A stretch of 22,539 nt of DNA, taken from the UHGV virus genome UHGV-0046269; one strand, written 5' to 3'. The stretch is from a virus. The notes beneath the pieces were generated by a model. It had not been told where the DNA came from. It made no database searches and was given only the letters and a program-made list of their open reading frames with translations. The translations under genes and the position numbers were made by a program. How positions within the stretch are numbered: the stretch's first letter is position 1; every line of letters begins with the position of its first letter. Positions 50-15,105 of the stretch are shown in pieces.

Positions 50-1168
50 TCAAATAACCAACTTAACCCATTCCTGACCTCGAGTATCGTTATAGCGATC
101 GGTGGTTGCCTGGACTTTATGTCCTAGTAATGTTTTTGTATCGATACCCTGTGCACGGTACAGCCGTTCTGATAGAGAGCGTTGTTCATGAAATGTTGGC
201 GAAGTTTTTCCTGCTGGTGGAATTATCCCAGCCAGATCCCGTGCTTTGGCAAAGTAGTCGCTCAGGTTGTCTTTACTCATCGGCTTCGGTTGTTTCTGGT
301 GCCGACTATGGATTAGATATGGACTTAATATTCTGTCTCGGCACCCATCAATAACTTCTTTTAACGTTATCCCAATGGCATCACAGCGTAGTGTAAGCGG
401 TAACGCCAGACGCATTCCGGTTTTTCCCTGGGTGATATGCAAGTGTTCGTTCCACACATCTGAAAAACGCATGTGGCAAATGTCATCACGGCGCTGACCA
501 GTAACAATCGCAAGAAGCATTGCGTTACGGATAAAGTGTTTTTCAGGCGTTGCATTGTAAATTTTTTGCCAGTCTTCCATGGTGAGCCTGGCTCTGGTTA
601 CTTTAGGGATCGGTTTACGGGTAGCCTCCGGAGGATTCCATCCAGGAGGAACTTCCCCTGCATGCTGTGCTTCTTTATAAATATCAACCCATAATCCACG
701 ATTTACTCTCGCTGTGCTGACCATGTCTTTATCCAGCCACTCATCCAGTATTAATGCAAAGTCTCTTACTTCCAGTTCTTTCAATGGGTGGTTTCCCAGA
801 CGGGAAACCAGGTATGCAGCCATTCGAGTTTTTTCTTTGTGAGTTGTAGCTGCAATATCTCCATTTTTCAGTCGCGTGTCCTGTATTTTCAGATATCGAT
901 CAACCCATGCCTTTAATCTGATACCCCGACGTTTTGTTGCTGACGGACTTTCATCAATTTTGCGCATGAAATATTCAGCTTCTGCTGCAGCTATTCGCTG
1001 ATTGGCTGTGGAAGCGATTTTTTCTGCCTTACCTTTGTCTGTTCCGAGTCCGTGAAATTTTCCAGTCACAGGATTTTTATACTGGTAGTAAACTCTGCCA
1101 GTTCTGCGATCAAACTTTTCGTAAAGACCGGCTACGTCAGTGCTGTTTTTTCGTGGCCTCGGTGACAT
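50..1168 (-). CDS. int: Phage integrase, tyrosine recombinase (lambda Int-like)
   Basis: 372 aa ORF; N-terminus (YYQYKNPVTGKFHGLGTDKGKA) resembles the lambda Int arm-binding region and the C-terminal half reads as a tyrosine-recombinase catalytic domain; sits at the prophage edge beside an excisionase-like gene. Confidence 0.88.
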   Translation of the reverse strand: MSPRPRKNSTDVAGLYEKFDRRTGRVYYQYKNPVTGKFHGLGTDKGKAEKIASTANQRIAAAEAEYFMRKIDESPSATKRRGIRLKAWVDRYLKIQDTRLKNGDIAATTHKEKTRMAAYLVSRLGNHPLKELEVRDFALILDEWLDKDMVSTARVNRGLWVDIYKEAQHAGEVPPGWNPPEATRKPIPKVTRARLTMEDWQKIYNATPEKHFIRNAMLLAIVTGQRRDDICHMRFSDVWNEHLHITQGKTGMRLALPLTLRCDAIGITLKEVIDGCRDRILSPYLIHSRHQKQPKPMSKDNLSDYFAKARDLAGIIPPAGKTSPTFHEQRSLSERLYRAQGIDTKTLLGHKVQATTDRYNDTRGQEWVKLVI

Positions 1169-1467: not shown

Positions 1468-3909
1468 TTAAAAATCAGCCTGACTCGGGATCAGTTTTTG
1501 CCAGATAACTGAAACGTATTTTGCCTGGTAACGGGCGTCATCAAGTGCATTATGGCGCTCACCTTCGAATGGAATAGCCGTTCTGGCATCGAAGTCTATG
1601 GCTTTCCCCAGCTCAACGATTGTGCGTACATCGCGATCGTTGTAGTAACGCCACGGGCAGGGGATCCCCTGCCGTTCGTATGAACGGCGCAAAATCGTGT
1701 TGTCGAAGTTGGCTCCATTTCCCCAGACCTGAACAAAAAATTCACCGGAGTTTTCGTCGATAAATTCCCGCAATTGTAACAGTGCATCATCTAACGGGAT
1801 TTCATCGGTCATAATGGCAGATTGCGCTTCGCGTGATTGCTTAAGCCACCATTTAATGGTGTCCCGATCAATGACTCCGCCAGCAGTTTCCAGATCGATA
1901 GTCTTACTAAATTCCGGTCCCATATCTCCGGTTTGCGGATCGAAAAATATTGCACCTATTGAGATGATCGGGGCATCAGGATTTTTTCCCATGGTTTCAA
2001 GGTCGATCATTAGATGGTCACACGTCCTGCTGGTGGATGTGATTTCTTGATGACCGTTCACCTTAATTGAGTGATCTGCCGTCTCGCCAGTTTCATTATC
2101 GCTATCGTGATGCTGATTGCCGCCAGTGTTCTCCTTGTGTGGATGTTCAGCGCCTTCCATTTCCTCCGGATCATCTTCCTGAACTTCAACCTGATACTCT
2201 TCATCGAATGTTTCCTGGTATGTTGCGTCGCCCATCACCGCGCCACAATCAGGGCAGTTGCCGCCGCCGGTCTGACCGCAGGCGGTGCAGACTTTTTCCA
2301 CTTCCTGTTGCGCCACTGGTTCGGATTGTTTCGTTTCTGGCTCGTTTTGTAACGCATTTGGGCTGTTTTGTTCCGCTTTTTGGTCGTTCCGTTCCGATTC
2401 ATGCTGGTTCTGGTTCACAGAATCGCGAGTCTGGATCCCTTTGACCCATTTCGGATCATTAGGGTCGCTAATCCCCTCAACAAATTCACCACGCGATACA
2501 GCAAGTAACTTATCGGCGTCAGGCTGGCTGATATTGGCTGCCTGCATAATTTTGTTTACTTCGTCAGCGGTGACTTTTACTTGGTTAGCGGAACTCACCT
2601 GCGACTGAGCATCCAGCGACTGCGCGTTCTGGCCATGTTCAGTTGTATCCGGTTCCATTGTTTCAGTTGTTGCCTGTTCACCTGCCATTGCGTCAGATGG
2701 TTGTGGTTTTTCTTCTTCTGTTTCACGCTCAGTAACCACCTCGCGGTTAATTTCTTCCAGGATATCTTTTTCCGGCGTATGCCGGGCAGCTGTGAGAGTT
2801 TCCTTGCTGGGGTTCTCGTGATCAGTTTCCGTCAAATAGGCGTTGATATACCCCTGAAGGCGTCCCGGGTAGTGATAAAATTCAGGGTGTGCGCTTCGGA
2901 TAAGTGCAAAAATAGCGGCGCGGGAATAGTCCAGAATACCCGGGGTTGCACGAAGTGCTGCGGACCATTCTTTGAACGGACTTTCTTTGTTCAGGACTAC
3001 TTCTTTTGCGCGACGATAAACGCTGCCCGGAATTTCATAAATATTAAAATCCATCGGAAGTGTGGCTGCTGCAATCTCCACATCCAGTGTGTCGAGGGTG
3101 TGTACTAAATTCGGATTGCGATCGGTTTTGTTCCCACCGCCAGCATTAGCACCGGAAGCCGTGCGGGTGATGCGTGAAACACGATTTCCTTTCATCCACT
3201 CTTTTGTCAGCAAACCCCGATCAGTGTAGTCAGCGTCTAGGTATGCTTCGAAAAAAGCAGTTATTAGTCCCAGGTCTGAATTACCAGGATTAGGGAAAAC
3301 TTTGTCAGTGTCACGAACCAGTTTGTGGAGGTCGCGAATCTCCAGCGAGTCGAGCAGACTGGTTTTATGCGAAATAGCCAGGGCAGTAACAGCCGGTAGT
3401 TCTTCAGCCCGTGCAATGTGTAATGCCTGGAGTTCGTCGCGTGAAACGTGCGTTACTGGTTTTTCGCTGCCGTGTTGAGCAAGCCAACGAATGGGCAGTT
3501 CCTGACCGGAGACAGGCAGAAGCATGCTCTCCTCAATCTCAGTCATGGCTTCGCCGTTGATGTTGGTATTGTCAGTGCTGGCTGGTTTGTCCTGAACAGA
3601 GGGGGAAGGGCCGATAAATGTCATTGTGATGCCATCTTTCCCGCCTTTTTCATAGCGGTTGCAGAATTCAGTATCAAACACGCCTTCTGGCGGAAGGTCG
3701 TCAACAACGGGCAAATTGACGCGGACGGGTTTTTTAAAGTCGTCTTCATCATAATCGTTGTCATCCATTGCGGTAATGCAGCGGGAGATTGCAACAGATA
3801 ATTTTTTTGCTGTAGTCCAGTAAAAACCACCTTTAATTCCTAGGCGTTTTCTTACTTTGTCATTTTTTGCTTCGCAATATAGTGCAAATTCTTCTTTATC
3901 AGTGCTCAT
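1468..3909 (-). CDS. Large phage protein with C-terminal DEDDh 3'-5' exonuclease domain (exodeoxyribonuclease VIII-like in related prophages)
   Basis: 813 aa ORF. C-terminal region carries exonuclease motifs I (MIDLETMG), II (VWGNGANFD) and III (HNALDDARY). A long acidic low-complexity middle region contains a CxxC...CxxC pair ([16 protein letters not shown]). Occupies the position of exo/bet in lambda. Confidence 0.7.
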
Positions 3910-4548: not shown

Positions 4549-4606
4549 AAAAAGGGCGGCAGAGCAGTCACGGAGTAAAACTGATACCGCCAAACGTCAC
4601 CAGAAA
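4549..4606 (-). ncRNA. dicF: DicF small RNA (antisense regulator of ftsZ and other mRNAs) with intrinsic terminator
   Basis: Reverse complement of 4554..4606 reads TTTCTGGTGACGTTTGGCGGTATCAGTTTTACTCCGTGACTGCTCTGCCGCCC, which matches the DicF sequence as I recall it, followed by a T-tract (4549..4553). Located between ydfC and dicB as in Qin. Confidence 0.85.
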
Positions 4607-5773: not shown

Positions 5774-6412
5774 TTAAATATCTTGTTGAATTTTAAAGCA
5801 TACGCCCAATATGCAAGATAGATCATCCAGCATAATTGAAGGGTAGCGAGGATTCGTGGGGACTAAAAGAATATCCGGCCCTTCTATCTCCAGTTTACGA
5901 ATGACAGGTGTTGTGGTCCCTTTGGGTAAGGCAAGGACAATATTTCCTGGTTGTACGGTTCGATCGGGATCAACAAAAACTGTTGAACCATTTGGGATGG
6001 AAACTCCCCCACCAGATGTTGACATACTGTCACTCTCTAGAACAACTGCAAAGGTATTGACCGGGATTTCTCCGACAAGCTGCACACAAGAGGTTATTGA
6101 GGAATTTTTCATATAATCACTCCAGCTTGCTGCCTGCTGAAGTGATAGTAGCGGAACCGTTTTTATCGGCGGTAAAGATAGATCAAGCGAATCACCTGTA
6201 TTTAACTCTCCTCCATTAAGAAGCCAATTTTCGTTTACTTTCAATATTTTTGCCAGTGAACTTATGTAACGCGAGGACGGCGCTCCTCCACCGTTCATCC
6301 ATTGACTTACGGAGCCTTTTGATGCGCCAGTGCCATTGACAAGGTCTTTGCCTTTCAGGTTTAGCGCATGCATACGTTGGGTTATGCGTTCAGATATAGT
6401 TTGCTTGCTCAT
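5774..6412 (-). CDS. CI-like prophage repressor (N-terminal HTH, C-terminal S24 LexA-like peptidase domain)
   Basis: 212 aa. N-terminus has an HTH-like segment (GASKGSVSQWMNGGGAPSSRYISSLAKIL); C-terminal half has the layout of an S24 self-cleaving domain (VLESDSMSTSGGG...VIRKLEIEG). Divergent from a Cro-like gene. Confidence 0.85.
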   Translation of the reverse strand: MSKQTISERITQRMHALNLKGKDLVNGTGASKGSVSQWMNGGGAPSSRYISSLAKILKVNENWLLNGGELNTGDSLDLSLPPIKTVPLLSLQQAASWSDYMKNSSITSCVQLVGEIPVNTFAVVLESDSMSTSGGGVSIPNGSTVFVDPDRTVQPGNIVLALPKGTTTPVIRKLEIEGPDILLVPTNPRYPSIMLDDLSCILGVCFKIQQDI

Positions 6413-6503
6413 GTTTTGATTTTAAAACACAGATGGTTTTGTTTCTTGACTTTCTTTGGTTTTGATTATTAAACTTTTGACGTTCAGTTTTATGGAGCGA
6501 CTC
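6413..6503. promoter_or_regulatory. Immunity-region divergent promoter/operator segment
   Basis: 91 bp between the divergent repressor and cro-like starts. Contains repeated GTTTTGATT motifs (6413..6421, 6459..6467) and a TTGACT (-35-like) with TATTAA-like -10 at suitable spacing for rightward transcription. Confidence 0.5.
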
Positions 6504-6746
6504 ATGAAAAAATCAGAAGTATTAGGCTATTTTGGCGGAGTTGTTAAAACAGCCGCAGCTCTAGGAACGTCAAAAACCACAGTCAGCATGTGGGGGGAAG
6601 AGGTTCCGTGGAAATGGGCGTTGCTAATTCAGGCAGTCACTGCCGGGGCGCTCAAATATGAGTTACACATACCGACGGTTGTCATTCCCGGTTCTGATCA
6701 TAATCCGCCTTCTAACCAAGGGGGGATTCATGAAAATCAAGCATGA
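6504..6746 (+). CDS. Cro/DicC-like HTH regulator
   Basis: 80 aa from MKKSEVLGYFGG; pattern LxYFGxxxKxAxALGxSxxxVSxW resembles DicC and Cro-type HTH proteins; divergent from the repressor. Confidence 0.7.
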   Translation: MKKSEVLGYFGGVVKTAAALGTSKTTVSMWGEEVPWKWALLIQAVTAGALKYELHIPTVVIPGSDHNPPSNQGGIHENQA

Positions 6747-7155
6747 ACACATCCGCATGGCGATGAATGCCTGGGCGCATCCGGACGGCGAAAAAGTACC
6801 GGCTGCGAAAATTACCAAAGCGTATTTCGAGCTGGGAATGACGTTCCCGGAACTGTATGACGACAGCCATCCGGAAGCCCTGGCTCGCAATACCCAGAAA
6901 ATTTTCCGCTGGGTAGAGAAAGACACCCCTGATGCAGTTGAAAAAATTCAGGCGTTGTTACCAGCGATCGAAAAGGCAATGCCACCTTTGCTGGTGGCCA
7001 GAATGCGCAGCCACAGTTCAGCTTATTTTCGGGAGCTGGTGGAGACGCGGGAGCGACTGGTGAGAGACGCTGATGATTTTGTCGCAGTGGCAATCGCCGG
7101 TTTCAATCAGATGAACCGTGGTGGCCCGGCAGGAAATGCTGTGGCAGTACATTGA
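6730..7155 (+). CDS. YdaT-like (CII-like) phage regulatory protein
   Basis: 141 aa from MKIKHEHIRMAMNAWAHPDGEKV; the N-terminal MKIKHEHI and the position after the cro-like gene match YdaT-family proteins of Rac-like prophages as I recall them. Start overlaps the upstream gene by 17 nt. Confidence 0.55.
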   Translation: MKIKHEHIRMAMNAWAHPDGEKVPAAKITKAYFELGMTFPELYDDSHPEALARNTQKIFRWVEKDTPDAVEKIQALLPAIEKAMPPLLVARMRSHSSAYFRELVETRERLVRDADDFVAVAIAGFNQMNRGGPAGNAVAVH

Positions 7156-7226: not shown

Positions 7227-8297
7227 ATGGCTAACGCCTGGCTCAGATTATGGCATGACATGCCAAATGACCCTAAGTGGCGAACAATTGCCAGGGTGTC
7301 AGGGCAGCCAATTGCAACAGTGATGGCAGTGTATATCCACCTCCTGGTGAGCGCGTCACGAAATGTCACGCGAGGTCACATTGATGTCACGACAGAAGAT
7401 TTGGCAAGTGCGCTCGACGTGACAGAAGAGGTAATTGATTCAATTTTGCAGACGATGCAGGGGCGGGTACTTGATGGTGATTTAATCACTGGATGGGAAA
7501 AACGCCAGGTGCTGAAAGAGGACAACGGCAATATTTCGCAAACCGCAAAATCTCCGGCAGAGCGCAAGAGGGCGCAGCGAGAGAGGGAAAGAAAGCGGGA
7601 ACAAAATGGCGATTGTCACGGCGAGTCACGAAATGTCACGCACATGTCACGACGAGTCACGACAGATAAAGATACAGATAAAGATACAGATCAAGAAGAT
7701 CAAAACACTATGGTCCATGGCGTAAAAAACGCCACGAACCAGGCAGGGGATGTTCAGACCGTCACTCCTGGCCAGCCCGCAGGCACGACACCGGAAGCCG
7801 ATTCAGCGTATGCGCTGAAAGCCGATTCGGGCGCTGTGCAGCAGGTGATGACCGCAAGGCAGGAGCAATCACACCAACTTCAGCAGCCTGAAGCCGATTC
7901 CGCCATTCAGCGGGAAGCCGATCGGGTAGTCCCGGAAAACACCGGGCAGCCTGTGGGACGAGTGGATTATCCTGATGTGTTCGAACAGGTCTGGCGGGAA
8001 TACCCGTTGCGTGCCGGGGCAAACCCGAAGAAATCCGCTTTCAGTGCCTGGAAAGCCAGATTACGCGAGGGGGTGCCACCAGAGGCCATGCTGGATGGCG
8101 TGAGGCGTTACGCAAGATACCTTGCGGCTACCGGGAAAACGGGAACGGAATTTGTTCAGCGAGCGACGACGTTTTTTGGACCGGACCGGAATTTTGAAAA
8201 CCCCTGGCTGCTCCCGGTAAGCGGCACGAACAACCAGCGTTGTGTGAATCATATTTCTGAACCGGATAACGAAATTCCGCCGGGCTTCAGGGGGTAA
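7227..8297 (+). CDS. Phage replication initiation / replisome organizer protein (O-like) containing iteron-like repeats
   Basis: 356 aa from the ATG at 7227 (RBS GAAGAGG upstream); N-terminus MANAWLRLWHDMPNDPKWRTIARVSG is typical of phage replisome-organizer N-terminal domains; the coding sequence contains two GTCACG repeat clusters and an AT-rich tandem repeat. Confidence 0.75.
   Translation: MANAWLRLWHDMPNDPKWRTIARVSGQPIATVMAVYIHLLVSASRNVTRGHIDVTTEDLASALDVTEEVIDSILQTMQGRVLDGDLITGWEKRQVLKEDNGNISQTAKSPAERKRAQRERERKREQNGDCHGESRNVTHMSRRVTTDKDTDKDTDQEDQNTMVHGVKNATNQAGDVQTVTPGQPAGTTPEADSAYALKADSGAVQQVMTARQEQSHQLQQPEADSAIQREADRVVPENTGQPVGRVDYPDVFEQVWREYPLRAGANPKKSAFSAWKARLREGVPPEAMLDGVRRYARYLAATGKTGTEFVQRATTFFGPDRNFENPWLLPVSGTNNQRCVNHISEPDNEIPPGFRG
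7351..7395. repeat. Iteron-like repeat cluster 1 (GTCACG units) inside the replication gene
   Basis: GCGCGTCACGAAATGTCACGCGAGGTCACATTGATGTCACGACAG carries four GTCAC(G/A) units; the 16-mer TCACGAAATGTCACGC recurs in cluster 2. Confidence 0.6.
7613..7710. repeat. Iteron-like repeat cluster 2 plus adjacent AT-rich tandem repeat (candidate replication origin)
   Basis: TTGTCACGGCGAGTCACGAAATGTCACGCACATGTCACGACGAGTCACGACAG (five GTCACG units) followed by GATAAAGATACAGATAAAGATACAGATCAAGAAGATCAA. Resembles the iterons plus AT-rich arrangement of lambda ori inside O. Confidence 0.6.
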
Positions 8298-8337: not shown

Positions 8338-8760
8338 GTGGCAAAAGTTTTTACACAAGAAGAGCGGGAAAAAATTAAAGGACAGGTTCTTGAACTCGTA
8401 CGCCAGAGTGGGCGCGAGACGTTACGACAACTGGAAGCTAAAACTGGGGCAACAAGATATCTGATGAGCGTTCTGGCCAGAGAGCTGGTTGCCAGTGGCG
8501 ATGTATACAATTCTGGCTACGGGTTATTCCCGTCTGAACAGGCTCGTAAAGACTGGCAAAATGCCCGCAAAAAATTATCGAGGGCAAAGCTGAAGAAACC
8601 GGTTGTGGTTGATCCGGACCTTATCTGGTCGTTACCTGACGGAGAAATACGTCGCTACGACAGTCGCCTAAACATAATCTGTCGCGAGTGCCGGAAGAGT
8701 GAAGCTATGCAGCGTGTACTGGCTTTCTATCAGGGTAATTTTCAGGAGGCGGTACTGTGA
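8338..8760 (+). CDS. Hypothetical phage protein
   Basis: 140 aa ORF in the track, apparently GTG-initiated; follows the replication gene in the same orientation. No family recognised. Confidence 0.5.
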   Translation: MAKVFTQEEREKIKGQVLELVRQSGRETLRQLEAKTGATRYLMSVLARELVASGDVYNSGYGLFPSEQARKDWQNARKKLSRAKLKKPVVVDPDLIWSLPDGEIRRYDSRLNIICRECRKSEAMQRVLAFYQGNFQEAVL

Positions 8761-8817
8761 GTGAAATTAGCTATCAGGCTTCAATTACCGCTGGCATTCG
8801 CATCAAAGGAGAGGAGC

Positions 8818-9174
8818 ATGGAAATAAAACCAGAGGATGAGTTAAGCAATATCGTTTTATTTCCGGTAAAAGAGGATGACCCTCGTAATCAGGTTAATTT
8901 TCTTTATGAGCCATCGGAAAGACCATATTGTCATCACGCCTCTGTCCGGGTTGACGAAAAAGAGCGTCAGGTCCGCTGTAAAATCTGCGGTGCAGTTGTG
9001 GAGCCATTTGACTGGATGCTCTCTGTGGCGAAAAGAGAAACCAGACTGGCAGATGATGTAAGGCTCTTGCGTCAGGAGGAGCGGGAAAGGCGAAAAAATA
9101 TAGAAAAGCTAATTCAGATTGAGCGTAACGCGAAAGCGCGGATACGCAGGGCGACAAAATCCAGAACTGAATAA
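8818..9174 (+). CDS. Hypothetical protein with putative zinc ribbon (CHH...CKICG)
   Basis: Internal start MEIKPEDEL preceded by AAAGGAGAGGAG RBS; 118 aa; Cys/His cluster YCHHASVRVDEKERQVRCKICG. The track ORF begins upstream at 8761. Confidence 0.5.
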   Translation: MEIKPEDELSNIVLFPVKEDDPRNQVNFLYEPSERPYCHHASVRVDEKERQVRCKICGAVVEPFDWMLSVAKRETRLADDVRLLRQEERERRKNIEKLIQIERNAKARIRRATKSRTE

Positions 9175-9256
9175 TTAAATTTAGCTCTGTTAAAAATTTA
9201 ATCCTTAACCGGAGGGATTTCTGCACCCTCAGAATATCAGGAGGCCGCCCGAAAGG

Positions 9257-9360
9257 NNNNNNNNNNNNNNNNNNNNNNNNNNNNNNNNNNNNNNNNNNNN
9301 NNNNNNNNNNNNNNNNNNNNNNNNNNNNNNNNNNNNNNNNNNNNNNNNNNNNNNNNNNNN
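9257..9360. other. Assembly gap (104 N) splitting a GNRA-type hairpin
   Basis: Run of N. Left flank ends CCGCCCGAAAGG and right flank starts CCGAAAGGGCGG; both are parts of one 16-mer hairpin CCGCCCGAAAGGGCGG with an 8-nt overlap, consistent with a scaffold join. Confidence 0.7.
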
Positions 9361-9379
9361 CCGAAAGGGCGGTAGTTAA

Positions 9380-9562
9380 ATGCGAAAGTTTAAAATAATT
9401 ATTGAAACGGGAATAGCCGGTGGAGATTTCGAGGATGAATTCGAAGTGGATGATGATGCGACGCCTGATGAAATACATGACGAAGCAAAAGATATTTTCT
9501 TTAACTACTGCAATTACTCATATCACGAAATAAAAGACGAAGAGGAAGAACAAAATGGCTGA
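9380..9562 (+). CDS. Small acidic hypothetical protein
   Basis: 60 aa ORF, very acidic (DFEDEFEVDDDATPDEIHDE...DEEEEQNG); its stop overlaps the next ORF start. Confidence 0.4.
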   Translation: MRKFKIIIETGIAGGDFEDEFEVDDDATPDEIHDEAKDIFFNYCNYSYHEIKDEEEEQNG

Positions 9563-9731
9563 TTTTGGTTCAACTAAATACAACGTCAGTTTTGAAGAAT
9601 GGCATGAACTGTTAATGGACTATGCAGAGTTACGTGGTGGCAGTGCTGCTGATGCTGAAGCATGGCGTGATGATTATGAAGCAGAAAAAACTCCGGTCGA
9701 AGCATATTGTGATGAGTGGGGCGATGAATGA
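9555..9731 (+). CDS. Small hypothetical protein (58 aa)
   Basis: Hand translation MADFGSTKYNVSFEEWHELLMDYAELRGGSAADAEAWRDDYEAEKTPVEAYCDEWGDE; start overlaps the previous stop (ATGGCTGA) and its stop overlaps the next ORF start, suggesting a coupled small-gene array. Confidence 0.4.
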   Translation: MADFGSTKYNVSFEEWHELLMDYAELRGGSAADAEAWRDDYEAEKTPVEAYCDEWGDE

Positions 9732-10044
9732 GCGAGGTTAATTATCAGGAAGGGCATGAAACGGCGGGGCAAGCAAAAACAGTGGCATGGCGATATCGCT
9801 ACGTGAAAAAAAAGGCGTTACGGACTTTCAGGGGAAGTAGTGGTCTGGTGACTGGAAATATGTACCGAAAAAAGAGGATTGTAACGACAGGCCGAACTAT
9901 GAAATTCAGGCCTTATTCACTGCCCCGCCAGTCCCGGTTACATCAGAAGAACTGGTTAAAGCTGTGCACTTTTATGAACAACTAAAACGCGAAAATCCAC
10001 CAGCATCCGGAAACCTGATTACAGATTCCCAGATAAGGCAATGA
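9728..10044 (+). pseudogene. Gene interrupted by a frame change at poly-A tracts (frameshifted gene, sequencing error, or programmed -1 frameshift)
   Basis: Track ORF 9728..9985 turns into basic low-complexity sequence after an A8 run (9806..9813). A protein-like reading frame without any start codon runs 9841..10044 in the -1 frame (…EIQALFTAPPVPVTSEELVKAVHFYEQLKRENPPASGNLITDSQIRQ). A heptamer A_AAA_AAG sits in the zero frame at 9868..9874. Confidence 0.3.
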
Positions 10045-10214
10045 GCTACCTGGCGCAGAACGGGCTGATAAGTATGGGGAATGTTTTACGATGAATATTT
10101 AGACTAAAGAGTTTGTAACGCTATGTAAGTGATTTTTTCTGGTTTAGATATTTATATATCCGGCCAAATTGAGGTGTGTTTAAATGTAATTGCACATTGA
10201 TTGTAGGAGGAATA

Positions 10215-10394
10215 ATGAAAAACGCATTGCAGTTTTTGTTTGTTGCGTTCTGGTTGTTCGTATCATGTATGCCCATCATCTTCACAGCAAGGTATATGGA
10301 AAAAGTTGATGTTTTGATATTAATATTTGGATATATAAATGCCCTTTTTTTAGGGGTGTTCATGGCGGTCATGTGCATTGAATACTGGCGGTAA
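10215..10394 (+). CDS. Small hydrophobic membrane protein (two predicted TM segments)
   Basis: 59 aa from MKNALQFLFVAFWLFVSCMPIIF...LFLGVFMAVMCIEYWR, preceded by an AGGAGG RBS; strongly hydrophobic. Confidence 0.45.
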   Translation: MKNALQFLFVAFWLFVSCMPIIFTARYMEKVDVLILIFGYINALFLGVFMAVMCIEYWR

Positions 10395-10652
10395 ATACAG
10401 CGAACGCCATTGGTTTAGTTGGATATTTACTGTGCCGGACAAAAACGGTTTGCGGGGAAATCTTAGTTAAGTAGAATGACTGCGGGTGCTTGAGGCTATC
10501 TGTCTCAGGCATGAACACCAAAAGGCAGATAGAGAAAAGCCCCAGTTAACATTACGCGTCCTGCAAGACGCTTAACATTAATCTGAGGCCATATCTATGC
10601 GACACATAGAGATTAGCCTCTTACGGACCGAAAGGTCAAGGAGAAGCAGGCT

Positions 10653-10808
10653 ATGAAGCAGCAAAAGGCGATGTTAATCGCCCTGATCGTCATCTGTTTA
10701 ACCGTCATAGTGACGGCACTGGTAACGAGGAAAGACCTCTGCGAGGTACGAATCCGAACCGGCCAGACGGAGGTCGCTGTCTTCACAGCTTACGAACCTG
10801 AGGAGTAA
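10653..10808 (+). CDS. hokD: Hok/Gef-family type I toxin (HokD/RelF-like)
   Basis: Hand translation MKQQKAMLIALIVICLTVIVTALVTRKDLCEVRIRTGQTEVAVFTAYEPEE (51 aa) fits the Hok/Gef family. A short upstream ORF (10597..10656) ends with TGA overlapping the hok ATG (mok-like coupling). Confidence 0.85.
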   Translation: MKQQKAMLIALIVICLTVIVTALVTRKDLCEVRIRTGQTEVAVFTAYEPEE

Positions 10809-10876
10809 GAGACCTGGCGGGGGAGAAATCCCTCGCCACCTCTGATGTGTCAGGCATCCTCAATGCACCCGCACTT

Positions 10877-10901
10877 AACCCGCTTCGGCGGGTTTATTTT
10901 A
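10877..10901 (+). terminator. Intrinsic terminator / 3' hairpin of the hok transcript
   Basis: AACCCGC-TTCG-GCGGGTT hairpin followed by TATTTTAT, about 70 nt downstream of the hok stop. Confidence 0.6.
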
Positions 10902-11266
10902 TCTGTAAATATTTTTATAAAAATAATGCCCACACACAGCATAAAACAAAAAGTATCACAGATAAAAAAGGAGCGTAATGTGCAGATTTGTTGTTTTCCA
11001 TATTTACTCACTTTAACATAATCAATATTGATATGGTTGTTGTTTCGGTGGTTTCAAACGAGATGTTATGGTGATCTGGTAAAATTGCATAACATTAAAA
11101 TTTAATTTATCTAATCGCTTTTAATAATAAGCGTTGTGTTTATCCCAACAATCTGTTGTTTGACTTTTATTCCATTAATGTAGGGGCTTTACACTGGAAC
11201 CAGTTTATTTATACTTTATACGCCAGCCTGAACAACTGGCACCTGCTGCGCCAGCAGAGACAACCG

Positions 11267-11545
11267 ATGGCGCACGATACCAAATTACACAATTCTGATG
11301 ATTCTGCCGTCTTTGCCAGCAGGTGCGGACGGCGTTTTCATGCATTCAAATCGGACTGGTTCCAGCATCCACCATGCACTGAAGAGCAGGCTGAATGGAT
11401 AATTCAGTGTTACCGCAGGCGCGGATACGAGGTTAAAAAAGCCCTTAGCCTCGACTACCGTCACTGGATAATCTCAGTCAGATTGCCTTACTCCGAACGC
11501 CCACCGCGTCCGTCCCGCACATTCCAGCAACGCATCTGGAGGTAA
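11267..11545 (+). CDS. Hypothetical protein (Rem-like position upstream of ydfU)
   Basis: 92 aa from the internal Met MAHDTKLHNSDD of track ORF 11156..11545; its stop lies 2 nt before the DUF968 gene start. Family assignment is by position only. Confidence 0.4.
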   Translation: MAHDTKLHNSDDSAVFASRCGRRFHAFKSDWFQHPPCTEEQAEWIIQCYRRRGYEVKKALSLDYRHWIISVRLPYSERPPRPSRTFQQRIWR

Positions 11546-11546
11546 C

Positions 11547-12596
11547 GTGCGGGTATTACTTCGACCTGTTCTGGTACCGGAACTCGGGCTGGTGATCGTT
11601 AAGCCGGGCCGTGAATCCATGCCGGTATTCCACAATACCCGGTTACTGGTGGAGCCGGAACCGAAAAGCATGCGTAATCTGCCGTCCGGGGTCGTTCCTG
11701 CCGCTCGCCAGCCGCTGGTGGAAGACAAAACATTGCTGCCGTTTTTCAGTAACGCACGGGTGATTCGTGCTGCTGGTGGTGCTGGTGCATTGTCTGACTG
11801 GCTGTTGCGCCATATTAAATCCTGCCAGTGGCCACACGGCGATTATCATCACAGCGAAACCGTCATTCACCGTTATGGTACCGGCGCAATGGTGTTGTGC
11901 TGGCACTGCGACAACCAGCTGCGTGACCAGACATCCGAATCACTCGAGCAACTTGCTCATCAAAACCTGTCAGCATGGATGATTGACGTCATCGGTCACG
12001 CAATAAGCGGTACGCAGGAGCGTGAATTATCTCTGGCTGAATTATCCTGGTGGGCGGTCCGCAATCAGGTGGCGGACGCGCTACCGGAAGCGGTATTACG
12101 TCGTTCGCTGGGGTTGCGTGCGGAAAAAATCCGCTCAATGTACCGTGAAAGCGACATCGTACCGGGAGAGCAGACCGCCACCAGCATACTGAAACAGCGC
12201 ACAAAAAATCTTACGCCGCTGCTTCACGCCCACCAGCAACAGAACCCACCACAGGAAAAGACGGTGGTCAGCATTGCCGTTGATCCTGAGTCTCCGGAAT
12301 CTTTCATGAAACGACCTAAACGTCGCCGCTGGGTTAACGAGAAATACACACGCTGGGTGAAGACACAGCCGTGTGCGTGTTGTGGTAAGCCAGCCGACGA
12401 TCCCCATCACCTGATTGGTCATGGTCAGGGCGGAATGGGGACAAAATCTCACGATATTTTCACGCTACCGCTGTGTCGGGAGCATCACAACGAGCTTCAT
12501 GCGGATCCGCTGGCGTTCGAAGAAAAGCATGGTTCTCAGGTTGATTTAATTTTTCGTTTTCTTGATCACGCCTTTGCAACTGGCGTGCTTGGGTAA
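11547..12596 (+). CDS. ydfU: DUF968-family phage protein (YdfU-like) with C-terminal HNH-like Cys/His motif
   Basis: 349 aa, GTG start after a GGAGG RBS. C-terminus CACCGKPADDPHHLIGHGQGGMGTKSHD...CREHHNELH is characteristic of the family. Confidence 0.7.
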   Translation: MRVLLRPVLVPELGLVIVKPGRESMPVFHNTRLLVEPEPKSMRNLPSGVVPAARQPLVEDKTLLPFFSNARVIRAAGGAGALSDWLLRHIKSCQWPHGDYHHSETVIHRYGTGAMVLCWHCDNQLRDQTSESLEQLAHQNLSAWMIDVIGHAISGTQERELSLAELSWWAVRNQVADALPEAVLRRSLGLRAEKIRSMYRESDIVPGEQTATSILKQRTKNLTPLLHAHQQQNPPQEKTVVSIAVDPESPESFMKRPKRRRWVNEKYTRWVKTQPCACCGKPADDPHHLIGHGQGGMGTKSHDIFTLPLCREHHNELHADPLAFEEKHGSQVDLIFRFLDHAFATGVLG

Positions 12597-12608
12597 AAGA
12601 GGTGACTG

Positions 12609-12979: not shown

Positions 12980-13801
12980 ATGAAACTGGAAGATTTACCG
13001 AAATACTACTCCCCAAAATCCCCTGGCCTGACCGATGCATCGGCCTCAACGTCAAAAGATGCGCTGAGTATCACTGATGTGATGGCCGCGCAGGGCATGA
13101 CACAGAATCGGGCTGAGATGGGTTTTTCTGCGTTCCTGGGGAAAATGGGCATCAGTATGAATGACAGGGCGCGGGCAACAGAATTACTGGCAGATTATGC
13201 ACTCAGTCGGTGCGATCGTGTGGCGGCGTTGAGAAAACTTCCGGCAGAAATAAAACCGGTAGTGATGCGCATTATGGCTTCGTACGCTTTTGAGGATTAT
13301 GCCCGCAGCGCAGCGAGTAAAAAGCAGTGCCCTTGTTGCTATGGGGAAAAATTTATTGAAAGCGTAGTTTTTACAAACAAGGTCCAGTATCCGGATGGTA
13401 AGCCGCCGGTATGGGCAAAGTGTACGAAAGGTGTGTATCCGTCTTACTGGGAAGAATGGAAAAAAGTCAGGGAGGTGGTAAAAGTTGCCTGTCCGGAGTG
13501 TGGCGGAAAGGGTGAGGTTTCCACCGCCTGTAAGGATTGCCGTGGGCGTGGTGTCGCCATTCACCGTGAAGAGTCGGTAAAACGTGGTATGCCTGTTATC
13601 AGAGACTGCCAGCGTTGTGGTGGTCGTGGCTATGAAAGACTACCATCAACGGAGGTATTTAATGCTATATGCGAGGTGACAAACCAGATAACACGCGCGT
13701 CATGGGAAAAAACAGTTAAGAAATTCTATGATGCGCTGGTGACCCGGTTTGATATTGAAGAAGCATGGGCTGAGCGGCAGTTAAAAAAGGTAACTAGGTA
13801 A
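12980..13801 (+). CDS. Late-gene antiterminator Q-like protein (QuuQ-like) with multiple CxxC zinc-finger motifs
   Basis: 273 aa; position between rusA and the tRNA/lysis region is the canonical Q slot; contains CPCC, CPECGGKG, CKDCRGRG and CQRCGGRG motifs. Confidence 0.65.
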   Translation: MKLEDLPKYYSPKSPGLTDASASTSKDALSITDVMAAQGMTQNRAEMGFSAFLGKMGISMNDRARATELLADYALSRCDRVAALRKLPAEIKPVVMRIMASYAFEDYARSAASKKQCPCCYGEKFIESVVFTNKVQYPDGKPPVWAKCTKGVYPSYWEEWKKVREVVKVACPECGGKGEVSTACKDCRGRGVAIHREESVKRGMPVIRDCQRCGGRGYERLPSTEVFNAICEVTNQITRASWEKTVKKFYDALVTRFDIEEAWAERQLKKVTR

Positions 13802-13944: not shown

Positions 13945-14020
13945 GGCCCTTTAGCTCAGTGGTGAGAGCGAGCGACTCATAATCGCCAGGTCGCTGGTTC
14001 AAATCCAGCAAGGGCCACCA
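13945..14020 (+). tRNA. ileZ: tRNA-Ile2 (anticodon CAU, ileX/ileZ-like)
   Basis: 76 nt cloverleaf: acceptor GGCCCTT/AAGGGCC, D-arm GCTC...GAGC, anticodon loop CTCATAA, T-arm GCTGG-TTCAAAT-CCAGC, 3' ACCA. Close to E. coli tRNA-Ile2 as I recall it. Confidence 0.88.
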
Positions 14021-14027
14021 TCACATA

Positions 14028-14104
14028 CCGCCATTAGCTCATCAGGAAAGAGCGCCAGCTTTCGAAGCTGGTTGCGCGGAGTTCGGGTCCCCGATGGTGG
14101 TCCA
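14028..14104 (+). tRNA. argN: tRNA-Arg (anticodon UCG), argN-like
   Basis: 77 nt: acceptor CCGCCAT/ATGGTGG (one G-U), D-arm GCTC...GAGC, anticodon stem CCAGC/GCTGG with loop TTTCGAA (anticodon TCG), T-arm CGGAG-TTCGGGT-CCCCG with one A-C mismatch, 3' TCCA. Confidence 0.6.
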
Positions 14105-14117
14105 TTATCGGTATTCT

Positions 14118-14194
14118 GCGTTGTTAGCTCAGCAGGACAGAGCAATTGCCTTCTAAGCAATCGGTCAGTGGTTCGAATCCAGTACAACGCGCCA
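14118..14194 (+). tRNA. argO: tRNA-Arg (anticodon UCU), argO/argU-like
   Basis: 77 nt: acceptor GCGTTGT/ACAACGC, anticodon loop CTTCTAA (TCT), T-loop GGTTCGAATCC, 3' GCCA. Confidence 0.88.
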
Positions 14195-14658: not shown

Positions 14659-15052
14659 ATACATATCTGGATTATCACCTGTTACGGTAAAAAGTGATTG
14701 CTTACTGTTTTTGTGAATGGCATTGCAGCAGCCGGATAATGTCAGTGCTGGCTGACGGTGTGCTGGTGGCAGGTGTGGTGGTTGTTGCTTTTCCGTTGCT
14801 GAAAAAGAAAACGCCAGACTGTTAGCCGGGTATCAGTTAGCGGGAGAAATTTTTAAATACTTCACAATTCAGGCGGTTGACTGTTGTCTGGTTTGCGGGG
14901 AGTTTGTTAAAAGAAACTGGCATGGTGAATCCCCCTGTGCGGAGGGGCAATCAGCGAGTAGGTATATGGGATAATCGCGGATTCAGGTGCTGGTACTGAA
15001 TTCACCGGGAGGCACCCGGCACCATGCAATGGCACATAGCGCCACTCTCCAA

Positions 15053-15078
15053 CCCCTCTCCGGAGGGGCTGTTTATAT
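15053..15078 (+). terminator. GC-rich hairpin followed by T-rich tract (possible intrinsic terminator)
   Basis: CCCCTC-TCCG-GAGGGG followed by CTGTTTATATTGATTTT; a related hairpin CCCCT-GTGCGG-AGGGG lies about 115 bp upstream (14934..14949). Confidence 0.35.
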
Positions 15079-15105
15079 TGATTTTGTCAGATGTGAGTAA
15101 ACTCC

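Follow-up and report, generated by a model that had tools for sequence, protein, structure and literature searches.

The 22,539-nucleotide (nt) stretch of viral DNA analysed here (UHGV virus genome UHGV-0046269; hereafter the window) represents, by its gene content and by library scans, the early region of a lambdoid Escherichia coli prophage. One of its genes encodes a replication initiator and contains, within its own coding sequence, two clusters of a short direct repeat (iterons), an A-rich tract and an inverted repeat. An earlier reading, made from the sequence alone, had proposed that these repeats mark a candidate replication origin inside the initiator gene. The gene and the features within it are as follows:

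7227-8297, plus strand: replication initiator gene, 356 amino acids, of the 'phage replisome organizer' type (phrog_3729, NCBI names)
7227-7610, plus strand: region encoding the N-terminal domain (N-domain), a predicted winged-helix-like iteron binder (AlphaFold model; weak HTH_Crp_2 and Phage_rep_org_N matches)
7355-7391, plus strand: iteron cluster 1, with GTCACG at 7355, 7365 and 7386 and GTCACA at 7375; spacing 10/10/11
7418-7423, minus strand: single inverted core (CGTGAC on the plus strand), 32 nt past cluster 1
7615-7661, plus strand: iteron cluster 2, with GTCACG at 7615, 7625, 7635, 7646 and 7656; spacing 10/10/11/10
7662-7709, plus strand: A-rich, purine-strand-biased (AGATAA)n-like hexamer array, a candidate DNA unwinding element (Tandem Repeats Finder, base-composition profile)
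7711-7741, no strand: inverted repeat with arms of 13 base pairs (bp) and a 5-nt loop (repeat search)
8223-8294, plus strand: codons of the C-terminal tail (residues 333-356), ending in VNHISEPDNEIPPGFRG, with likeness to the tail of DnaT

The hexamer GTCACG occurs at 16 sites in the window when both strands are counted. Nine of these lie within 7355-7661, a segment of 307 bp in which 0.10 would be expected from the rest of the window (Poisson P = 2.5e-15). The 10/10/11 pitch is common to both clusters, as is the 17-mer GTCACGAAATGTCACGC, found at 7355 and again at 7625; the sequence-only reading had described it as a shared 16-mer with the copies about 270 bp apart, and the distance is 270 bp. 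That reading had also counted four to five units in each cluster. This holds for cluster 2, which has five, and not for cluster 1, which is made up of three perfect units, one variant and one inverted copy.

Are these repeats a property of the DNA or of the protein that it encodes? The nine direct cores are spread over all three reading frames, and the repeated peptide segments, which had been remarked on before and are present in the translation, therefore follow from the DNA repeat and not the reverse. When synonymous codons were permuted within the gene in 5000 trials the mean number of GTCACG hexamers was 1.8 and the maximum 6, compared to the 8 observed on the plus strand. Because the cores lie in three frames and codon permutation cannot reproduce them, the repeats are constrained as DNA and not as peptide. 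An iteron-type theta origin is expected to have at least three direct repeats of one short motif on the helical pitch, and such repeats are present here.

It is likewise expected to have an AT-rich unwinding element, and directly beside the last iteron is the A-rich tract at 7662-7709. The tandem repeat that the sequence-only reading had placed after the second cluster was recovered by Tandem Repeats Finder at 7662-7696, with a period of 12, 2.9 copies, 95% matches and an underlying period of 6. The tract is the minimum of guanine-plus-cytosine (GC) content in the initiator gene, at 35% in a 60-nt profile and 25% in the best 40-nt window, which starts from gene nt 440. It contains GATC at 7689-7692 and 7698-7701.

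The hairpin at 7711-7741 may be part of the origin, although this is uncertain. It is present in enteric relatives and in the Shiga toxin (Stx) phage 75/02, the enrichment of stable hairpins in the family as a whole is weak (median percentile 0.27), and no compensatory changes were found in it within the enteric group. No DnaA boxes were found in or near the origin, and no Rfam family was matched there. On the minus strand, the inverted iterons at 7639-7612 give a promoter-like match (GTGACA, 16 nt, GACAAT), and the segment 7741-7711, where the T-rich complement of the A-rich tract comes after the hairpin, was scored as terminator-like by the scan. These matches could be due to chance or to antisense transcription at the origin.

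Recurrence of the layout in homologous genes

A protein search recovered full-length relatives of the initiator down to 45% identity. For comparison at the DNA level, three distant genes (L003-L005) and 55 species-level loci from gamma-, beta- and alpha-proteobacteria were used, with 53 diverse initiator (rep) genes entering the iteron analysis and 41 loci the analysis of the A-rich tract. When the N-terminal halves of the proteins are aligned, the only stretches of variable length coincide with the two clusters. The distant proteins have other repeated peptides at both cluster places, for example NAGVTQSNA, which is present twice in P0096.

In a de novo count of 6-mers, GTCACG came first in most genes, GTAACG in some, and CGAACG/GAACGC in many of those from beta- and alpha-proteobacteria. 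The clusters of the homologues, each of 3-5 direct copies, are at gene positions equivalent to those in the window (nt ~117-181 and ~350-500), and about 44 of the 53 have 3-4 phased cores at the position of cluster 1. The repeated unit measures 10-11 bp, its 6-bp core is asymmetric and the flanks of the core are weakly conserved; across the family the distance from core to core is 10 bp in 136 cases and 11 bp in 33. Two or more neighbouring pairs of a single 6-mer in helical phase were found in 44 of 53 rep genes and in none of 227 flank segments of matched size. Within a gene the two clusters always share one core, be it GTCACG, GTAACG or CGAACG, and the class of core tracks the lineage of the N-domain. 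Many of the GTCACG-class homologues also have the inverted core, at gene nt 192 (nt 180 where the fetched match starts at residue 5). The layout of two phased clusters followed by (AGATAA)n persists in hosts with as much as 60-69% GC and where the reading frame is shifted. No second candidate combining iterons with an AT-rich tract was found in the 4-5 kilobases (kb) of sequence flanking the homologues, where there are 0-5 scattered cores.

In nearly all 41 loci analysed for the A-rich tract, the motif (C/T)AGATAAAGATA(A/C)AGAT starts 2-4 nt past the last iteron, and the hexamer profile over five units is A.83, G.73, A.84, T.57, A.74, A.65. In hosts of 60-69% GC the tract is retained and is the local GC minimum. 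The motif is read in three different frames, in 31, 5 and 5 loci respectively. Codons for Asp, Lys and Glu were compared in hosts of at least 55% GC, and the ratio of AT-ending to GC-ending codons is 151:50 inside the tract versus 657:806 outside it (Fisher P = 4e-16). Taken together, these sequence comparisons indicate that the tract is under constraint at the level of the DNA, and that this constraint acts on sequence and not on composition alone.

Within one closely related N-domain clade the core differs between members. It is GTCACG in the Erwinia locus L030 (2660-2685, 2912-2960) and GTAACG in L005 and in the Pantoea/Enterobacter loci L026 and L028, while some copies in the clade are mixed or overlapping (GTCACGTCACGTCACG; a GTAACG/GTGACG mix). 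Comparison of these sequences suggests that the third base of the core is either weakly read or evolving in concert.

Some individual loci depart from the common layout. In L048 (2501-3691) and L057 (2501-3805) a GIY-YIG-like insert (YVYYV...GISRNPWAR) is present where cluster 2 would sit; both have palindromic words of the CTACGTAG type and neither iterons nor an A-rich tract. A single metagenome-assembled genome (MAG) of an uncultured beta-proteobacterium has four copies of the N-domain homologue, two of which (L050, L051) are full-length and without iterons and A-rich tract, and two of which (L054, L056) are truncated after ~93 codons. Closer to the window, the P0019 allele (L141:6364-6450) has a 162-bp in-frame deletion equivalent to window positions ~7630-7791. 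The endpoints of the deletion are the second iteron of cluster 2 and an iteron-like GCACGAC at 7783; iterons 3-5 are lost, together with the A-rich tract and the hairpin. P0019 is found on at least 7 contigs, in a prophage that is otherwise similar, and by its sequence may be a natural allele lacking the origin.

The initiator protein and its genomic setting

The product of 7227-8297 has a full-length match to phrog_3729 ('replication initiation protein', E = 7e-257), and NCBI labels the 99%-identical protein cluster (P0001) 'phage replisome organizer'. The sequence-only reading had called the gene O-like. This description does not fit, as no lambda-O-type Pfam family was found for either the whole protein (E <= 0.01) or the N-terminal 128 residues (E <= 10). 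Those 128 residues do align with nearly the whole of Phage_rep_org_N (PF09681; model positions 1-119 of 121, E = 0.008), at 16.6 bits versus a cut-off of 23.3, and the match to TIGR01714 is likewise sub-threshold (15.5 bits versus 49.8). A Phage_rep_org_N match at E < 0.1 was present in 9 of 29 diverse members, the best at 7e-4. On these sequence scores, membership of Phage_rep_org_N is marginal.

The AlphaFold (AF2) model of the protein has a mean predicted local distance difference test score (pLDDT) of 49 overall, with values of 60-89, reasonable for modelling, over residues 1-90. The predicted N-terminal elements are helices 2-11, 16-25, 29-45, 56-63 and 67-77, with a low-confidence loop at 46-55, and a beta hairpin at 78-86. 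Beyond these are predicted a helix at 110-126, disorder over 127-245, a C-terminal domain made up of helices (250-312) and, at the end, a disordered tail. Cluster 1 corresponds to codons 43-57, at the low-confidence loop that separates helix 29-45 from helix 56-63. The start of the predicted disordered linker is encoded by cluster 2 (codons 130-145) and by the A-rich tract (codons 146-160). According to the model, the clusters sit where the protein would tolerate them, in a variable loop and in a disordered linker.

The N-domain is the only part of the protein that always accompanies the iterons, and it is joined to 14 unrelated groups of C-terminal region. An initiator gene in cis, with a predicted DNA-binding domain that co-varies with the iterons, is thus present, as is expected of an iteron-type origin. 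The exchange of modules can be seen close at hand, in that the similarity to the replication protein of Stx phage 75/02 begins exactly after the A-rich tract. This Shigella phage (L002:2570-2940) has the same C-terminal module with an unrelated N-terminal module. The latter contains short repeats, with GGGGCTTC twice in direct orientation and GAAGCCCC/GAGCCCC inverted later, and there follow a (CAAGAA/CAGGAA)n purine tract and then a hairpin as in the window. From its sequence, this phage may have an origin built on the same plan and differing in specificity.

The last ~22 residues of the initiator, which ends in QRCVNHISEPDNEIPPGFRG, are almost the same as those at the C-terminus of E. coli DnaT. 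A profile search against the sequences of the PDB gave no match for the N-domain and, for the C-terminal domain, the DnaT tail only (6aep, 2ru8 and 9zbt, E = 0.003-0.1). The protein was rejected as a DnaT homologue, with NF002770 scoring 19 bits versus a cut-off of 201 over the last 24 residues only (positions 156-179 of 179). A DnaT domain fold was rejected too, as the C-terminal-domain profile matches DnaT chains over the terminal ~22 residues only. DnaT takes part in reloading the helicase when replication restarts (PMC13377028), and from its sequence the tail may mimic DnaT to reach the host's replication-restart or helicase-loading partner.

The initiator gene is located in the following surroundings:

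50-1168, minus strand: integrase
1468-3909, minus strand: RecE-like exonuclease
5774-6412, minus strand: S24/helix-turn-helix (HTH) repressor (cI-like)
6446-6475, plus strand: promoter-like site between the cI-like and cro genes (consensus scan only, 9/12 matches)
6504-6746, plus strand: Cro gene
6730-7155, plus strand: cII/YdaT-like gene

The order cI (minus strand), cro, cII-like, rep is that of a lambda-like early operon. The site at 6446-6475 is, by its sequence, a candidate early rightward promoter and would transcribe through the origin. Located 3' of the initiator gene are a DUF977 gene and genes for DUF968, RusA, antiterminator Q, lysozyme, Rha and Nu1. A DUF977/Ren-like gene stands after the initiator in the window and in its close relatives. 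No helicase or loader gene was found in the window (8338-12600, after the initiator), which has a gap of 104 N at 9257-9360, or in the close relatives L001 and L141. Homologues at 45-48% identity have a DnaC/IstB-like ATPase gene directly after the initiator (L003:3960-4706, L004:3964-4731, L005:3972-4697). The run of N, which represents an assembly gap or masking, is intergenic, follows the open reading frame at 8761-9174, and is flanked by ...GGCCGCCCGAAAGG and CCGAAAGGGCGG.

The 1.2-kb initiator region is present at 96-99.9% identity in seven sequenced Escherichia phages, and the 381-bp repeat region was found in 2036 of 5426 complete E. coli genomes. Elsewhere in the window, Rfam matches at gathering level were obtained for the small RNA (sRNA) DicF (4554-4605, minus strand), for the sok antitoxin RNA of a hok/sok-type module (10484-10655, plus strand), for three tRNA genes (13945-14191, plus strand) just 3' of the antiterminator Q gene (12980-13801), and for the sRNA STnc100 (14891-15080, plus strand).

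The proposed origin and the alternatives

The segment 7355-7741 is, in our judgement from sequence, very probably a vegetative theta-type iteron origin with its unwinding element, located inside the gene of its own initiator. The proposal of an origin made by the sequence-only reading is thus strengthened. The repeats are present and helically phased, they are constrained as DNA, conserved in homologues and co-varying with the N-domain, and the AT-rich tract persists against the GC content of the host. The layout also has experimentally studied precedents in lambda and Stx phages, in SPP1 oriL and in TP901-1 and Tuc2009. From the sequence evidence we infer that the N-domain binds the cores, that the DNA loops and unwinds, that a helicase is recruited and that the segment acts as an origin.

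In the proposed mechanism, an early transcript running rightward across cro and the cII-like gene would lead to synthesis of the 356-residue initiator. Its winged-helix-like N-domain would bind the asymmetric GTCACG cores head-to-tail, one protomer to each helical turn and along a single face of the helix, at five sites in cluster 2, four in cluster 1 and one inverted site. Contacts between proteins inside each array, and perhaps also from one array to the other ~260 bp away, would deform the DNA. This deformation, together with negative supercoiling, would open the adjoining purine-rich (AGATAA)n tract. The C-terminal domain and the DnaT-like tail would then bring in the host DnaB helicase, presumably by way of host DnaC, as neither a helicase nor a loader is encoded in the window. 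Cluster 1 may be part of the nucleoprotein complex. A more elaborate version, which we consider tentative and rather doubtful, is a three-part machine common to alpha-, beta- and gamma-proteobacterial prophages, in which (AGATAA)n is also read as single-stranded DNA (ssDNA) and looping to cluster 1 drives the opening. The (AGATAA)n array, retained in sequence over at least five hexamers in 41 loci, would then be a sequence-specific element. By analogy with DnaA-trios and with plasmid Rep proteins, the reader of the ssDNA might be the initiator, the DnaT-like module or an exchangeable C-terminal module.

Several observations weigh against an origin of this kind. Iterons are few or absent in about nine of the 53 homologues (L032, L035, L046, L048, L050, L051 and L057, and in part L042 and L047), and the N-domain can therefore exist without them. 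The distance between clusters ranges from 221 to 282 bp with no integral number of helical turns held; because it is not constant in helical turns, we make no claim on phase between the clusters. Among 79 near-identical E. coli copies, core substitutions account for one of 25 variable sites versus ~3 expected, a non-significant difference. The structure model is poor overall, and a fold search with it against the PDB returned winged-helix regulator matches only, at E > 1, which is weak support for an HTH fold. A search of the literature, in which subscription journals were largely not covered, found no description of these iterons and no binding, unwinding or replication assay for any member of the family. 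No minimal replicon with the N-domain was found in the plasmid collection, where it is present only in large E. coli plasmids, mislabelled chromosomes and two ~51-kb Pseudomonas records, and there is no classical model phage among the 25 phage records that have the N-domain.

Could the repeats be bound by the initiator for control, with replication starting elsewhere? As sites of autoregulation, of a transcription roadblock or of titration and handcuffing, they would account for there being two separate clusters of which only one adjoins an AT-rich tract, for the extra inverted copy at cluster 1 and for the lack of helical constraint on the distance between the clusters. A second iteron set for control is known from P1 incA and SPP1 oriR (for the two origins of SPP1, see PMC6316719). 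However, the tight, conserved junction between the last iteron and (AGATAA)n is the signature of an origin and not of an operator, and no other candidate with iterons and an AT-rich tract is seen in the 4-5 kb flanks of the homologues. We regard this explanation as unlikely, including its milder and more plausible form in which cluster 2 and the A-rich tract are the origin and cluster 1 alone is regulatory.

Highly unlikely, in our estimate, is that some other factor binds the sites for a function unrelated to the initiator. A host protein or the phage cII/YdaT-like or DUF977 protein might be considered, and a YdaT-like gene does precede rep in the window and in L003-L005. Yet the iterons are embedded in the N-domain gene in hosts of three proteobacterial classes, the gene next after rep is not the same in the different loci whose surroundings were inspected, the core changes with the lineage of the N-domain, and the C-terminal regions vary freely. 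Least probable of all is that the repeats are a by-product of a low-complexity peptide or of slippage-prone DNA, and matter only as a junction for module recombination. The encoded peptides are indeed repetitive (SRNVT..VTT twice; DKDTDKDTD), copy number varies among relatives, the 162-bp deletion arose between iteron-like repeats, and the module boundary with the 75/02 protein falls at the A-rich tract. The cores and the A-rich motif are nevertheless each found in three frames, so no single peptide is conserved, and on this frame analysis the peptide repeat was rejected as an explanation. The strict 10-11 bp pitch and the bias to AT-ending codons against host GC are properties of DNA, and both clusters change their core together.

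An origin of this kind is a textbook element, and a description of this family's origin was not found in the openly searchable literature. The family is large, with the N-domain forming 1013 protein clusters at 50% identity (E <= 1e-10), and in RefSeq the gene often goes under the name 'hypothetical protein'. As a ready marker, the origin with its specificity classes (GTCACG, GTAACG, CGAACG) would help in annotating those of other prophages, and the core classes predict replication incompatibility or cross-activation between co-resident prophages. Natural ori-deletion alleles could be used as indicators of defective prophages, and the compact rep-plus-ori cassette in the building of vectors. 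The family also represents a natural series for the co-evolution of initiator and site, both encoded in the same nucleotides.

Comparison with known origins

As far as we have checked, the second conserved cluster within the region encoding the predicted DNA-binding domain, the inverted copy and the sequence-conserved hexamer tract have no counterpart in ori-lambda or in the origins of Gram-positive replisome organizer genes. Bipartite iteron replicons such as satellite phage P4, with ori and crr, and the P1 plasmid, with incC and incA, have two sets of sites for one initiator, and the roles of these sets, either as a second required site in cis or in copy control, have been shown experimentally. 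The origin proposed here resembles them in having two separated sets of one short iteron. In P4 and P1, however, the sets are kilobases apart or flank rep, whereas here both are within ~300 bp of coding sequence.

The likeness to lambda that the sequence-only reading had noted holds for the layout and not for the protein homology, the structure of the iterons or the second cluster. In ori-lambda and in Stx phages the iterons, the AT-rich tract and an inverted repeat are in the DNA encoding the linker of O (PMC7466680). Here too the proposed origin is in the middle of the initiator gene, at the linker between a predicted DNA-binding N-terminal domain and a C-terminal domain, with the same order of iterons, AT-rich tract and inverted repeat, and it is downstream of the early rightward operon with cro and a cII-like gene. 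As in lambda, the number of iterons varies between relatives, adding residues to the protein (PMC7466680). Unlike in lambda, the initiator is not of the O family by sequence, there is no P-type loader gene, and the A-rich tract is a sequence-conserved hexamer array. The second conserved cluster ~260 bp upstream also sets this origin apart from that of lambda. Lambda has 4-6 sites of ~19 bp with internal dyad symmetry, bound by O dimers; here the cores are asymmetric, 6 bp long and head-to-tail at one per 10-11 bp, and iterons of the lambda type were rejected on these grounds.

The replisome organizer genes of phages of Gram-positive bacteria provide another comparison. The oriL of SPP1 is within gene 38 and has direct repeats followed by an AT-rich unwinding element (PMC6316719), and ORF13 of TP901-1 and Rep2009 of Tuc2009 are initiators that bind direct repeats in their own genes (summarised in PMC8965321). 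The present family differs from these in its proteobacterial hosts, in having a bipartite architecture within one gene and in a sequence relation that is marginal, and the phage of the window has a DnaT-like tail and no loader or helicase gene. It resembles TP901-1, Tuc2009 and SPP1 in that the direct repeats are within the cognate initiator gene, in its full-length, if sub-threshold, match to Phage_rep_org_N, and in that many homologues are followed by a gene for a DnaC/IstB-like loader.

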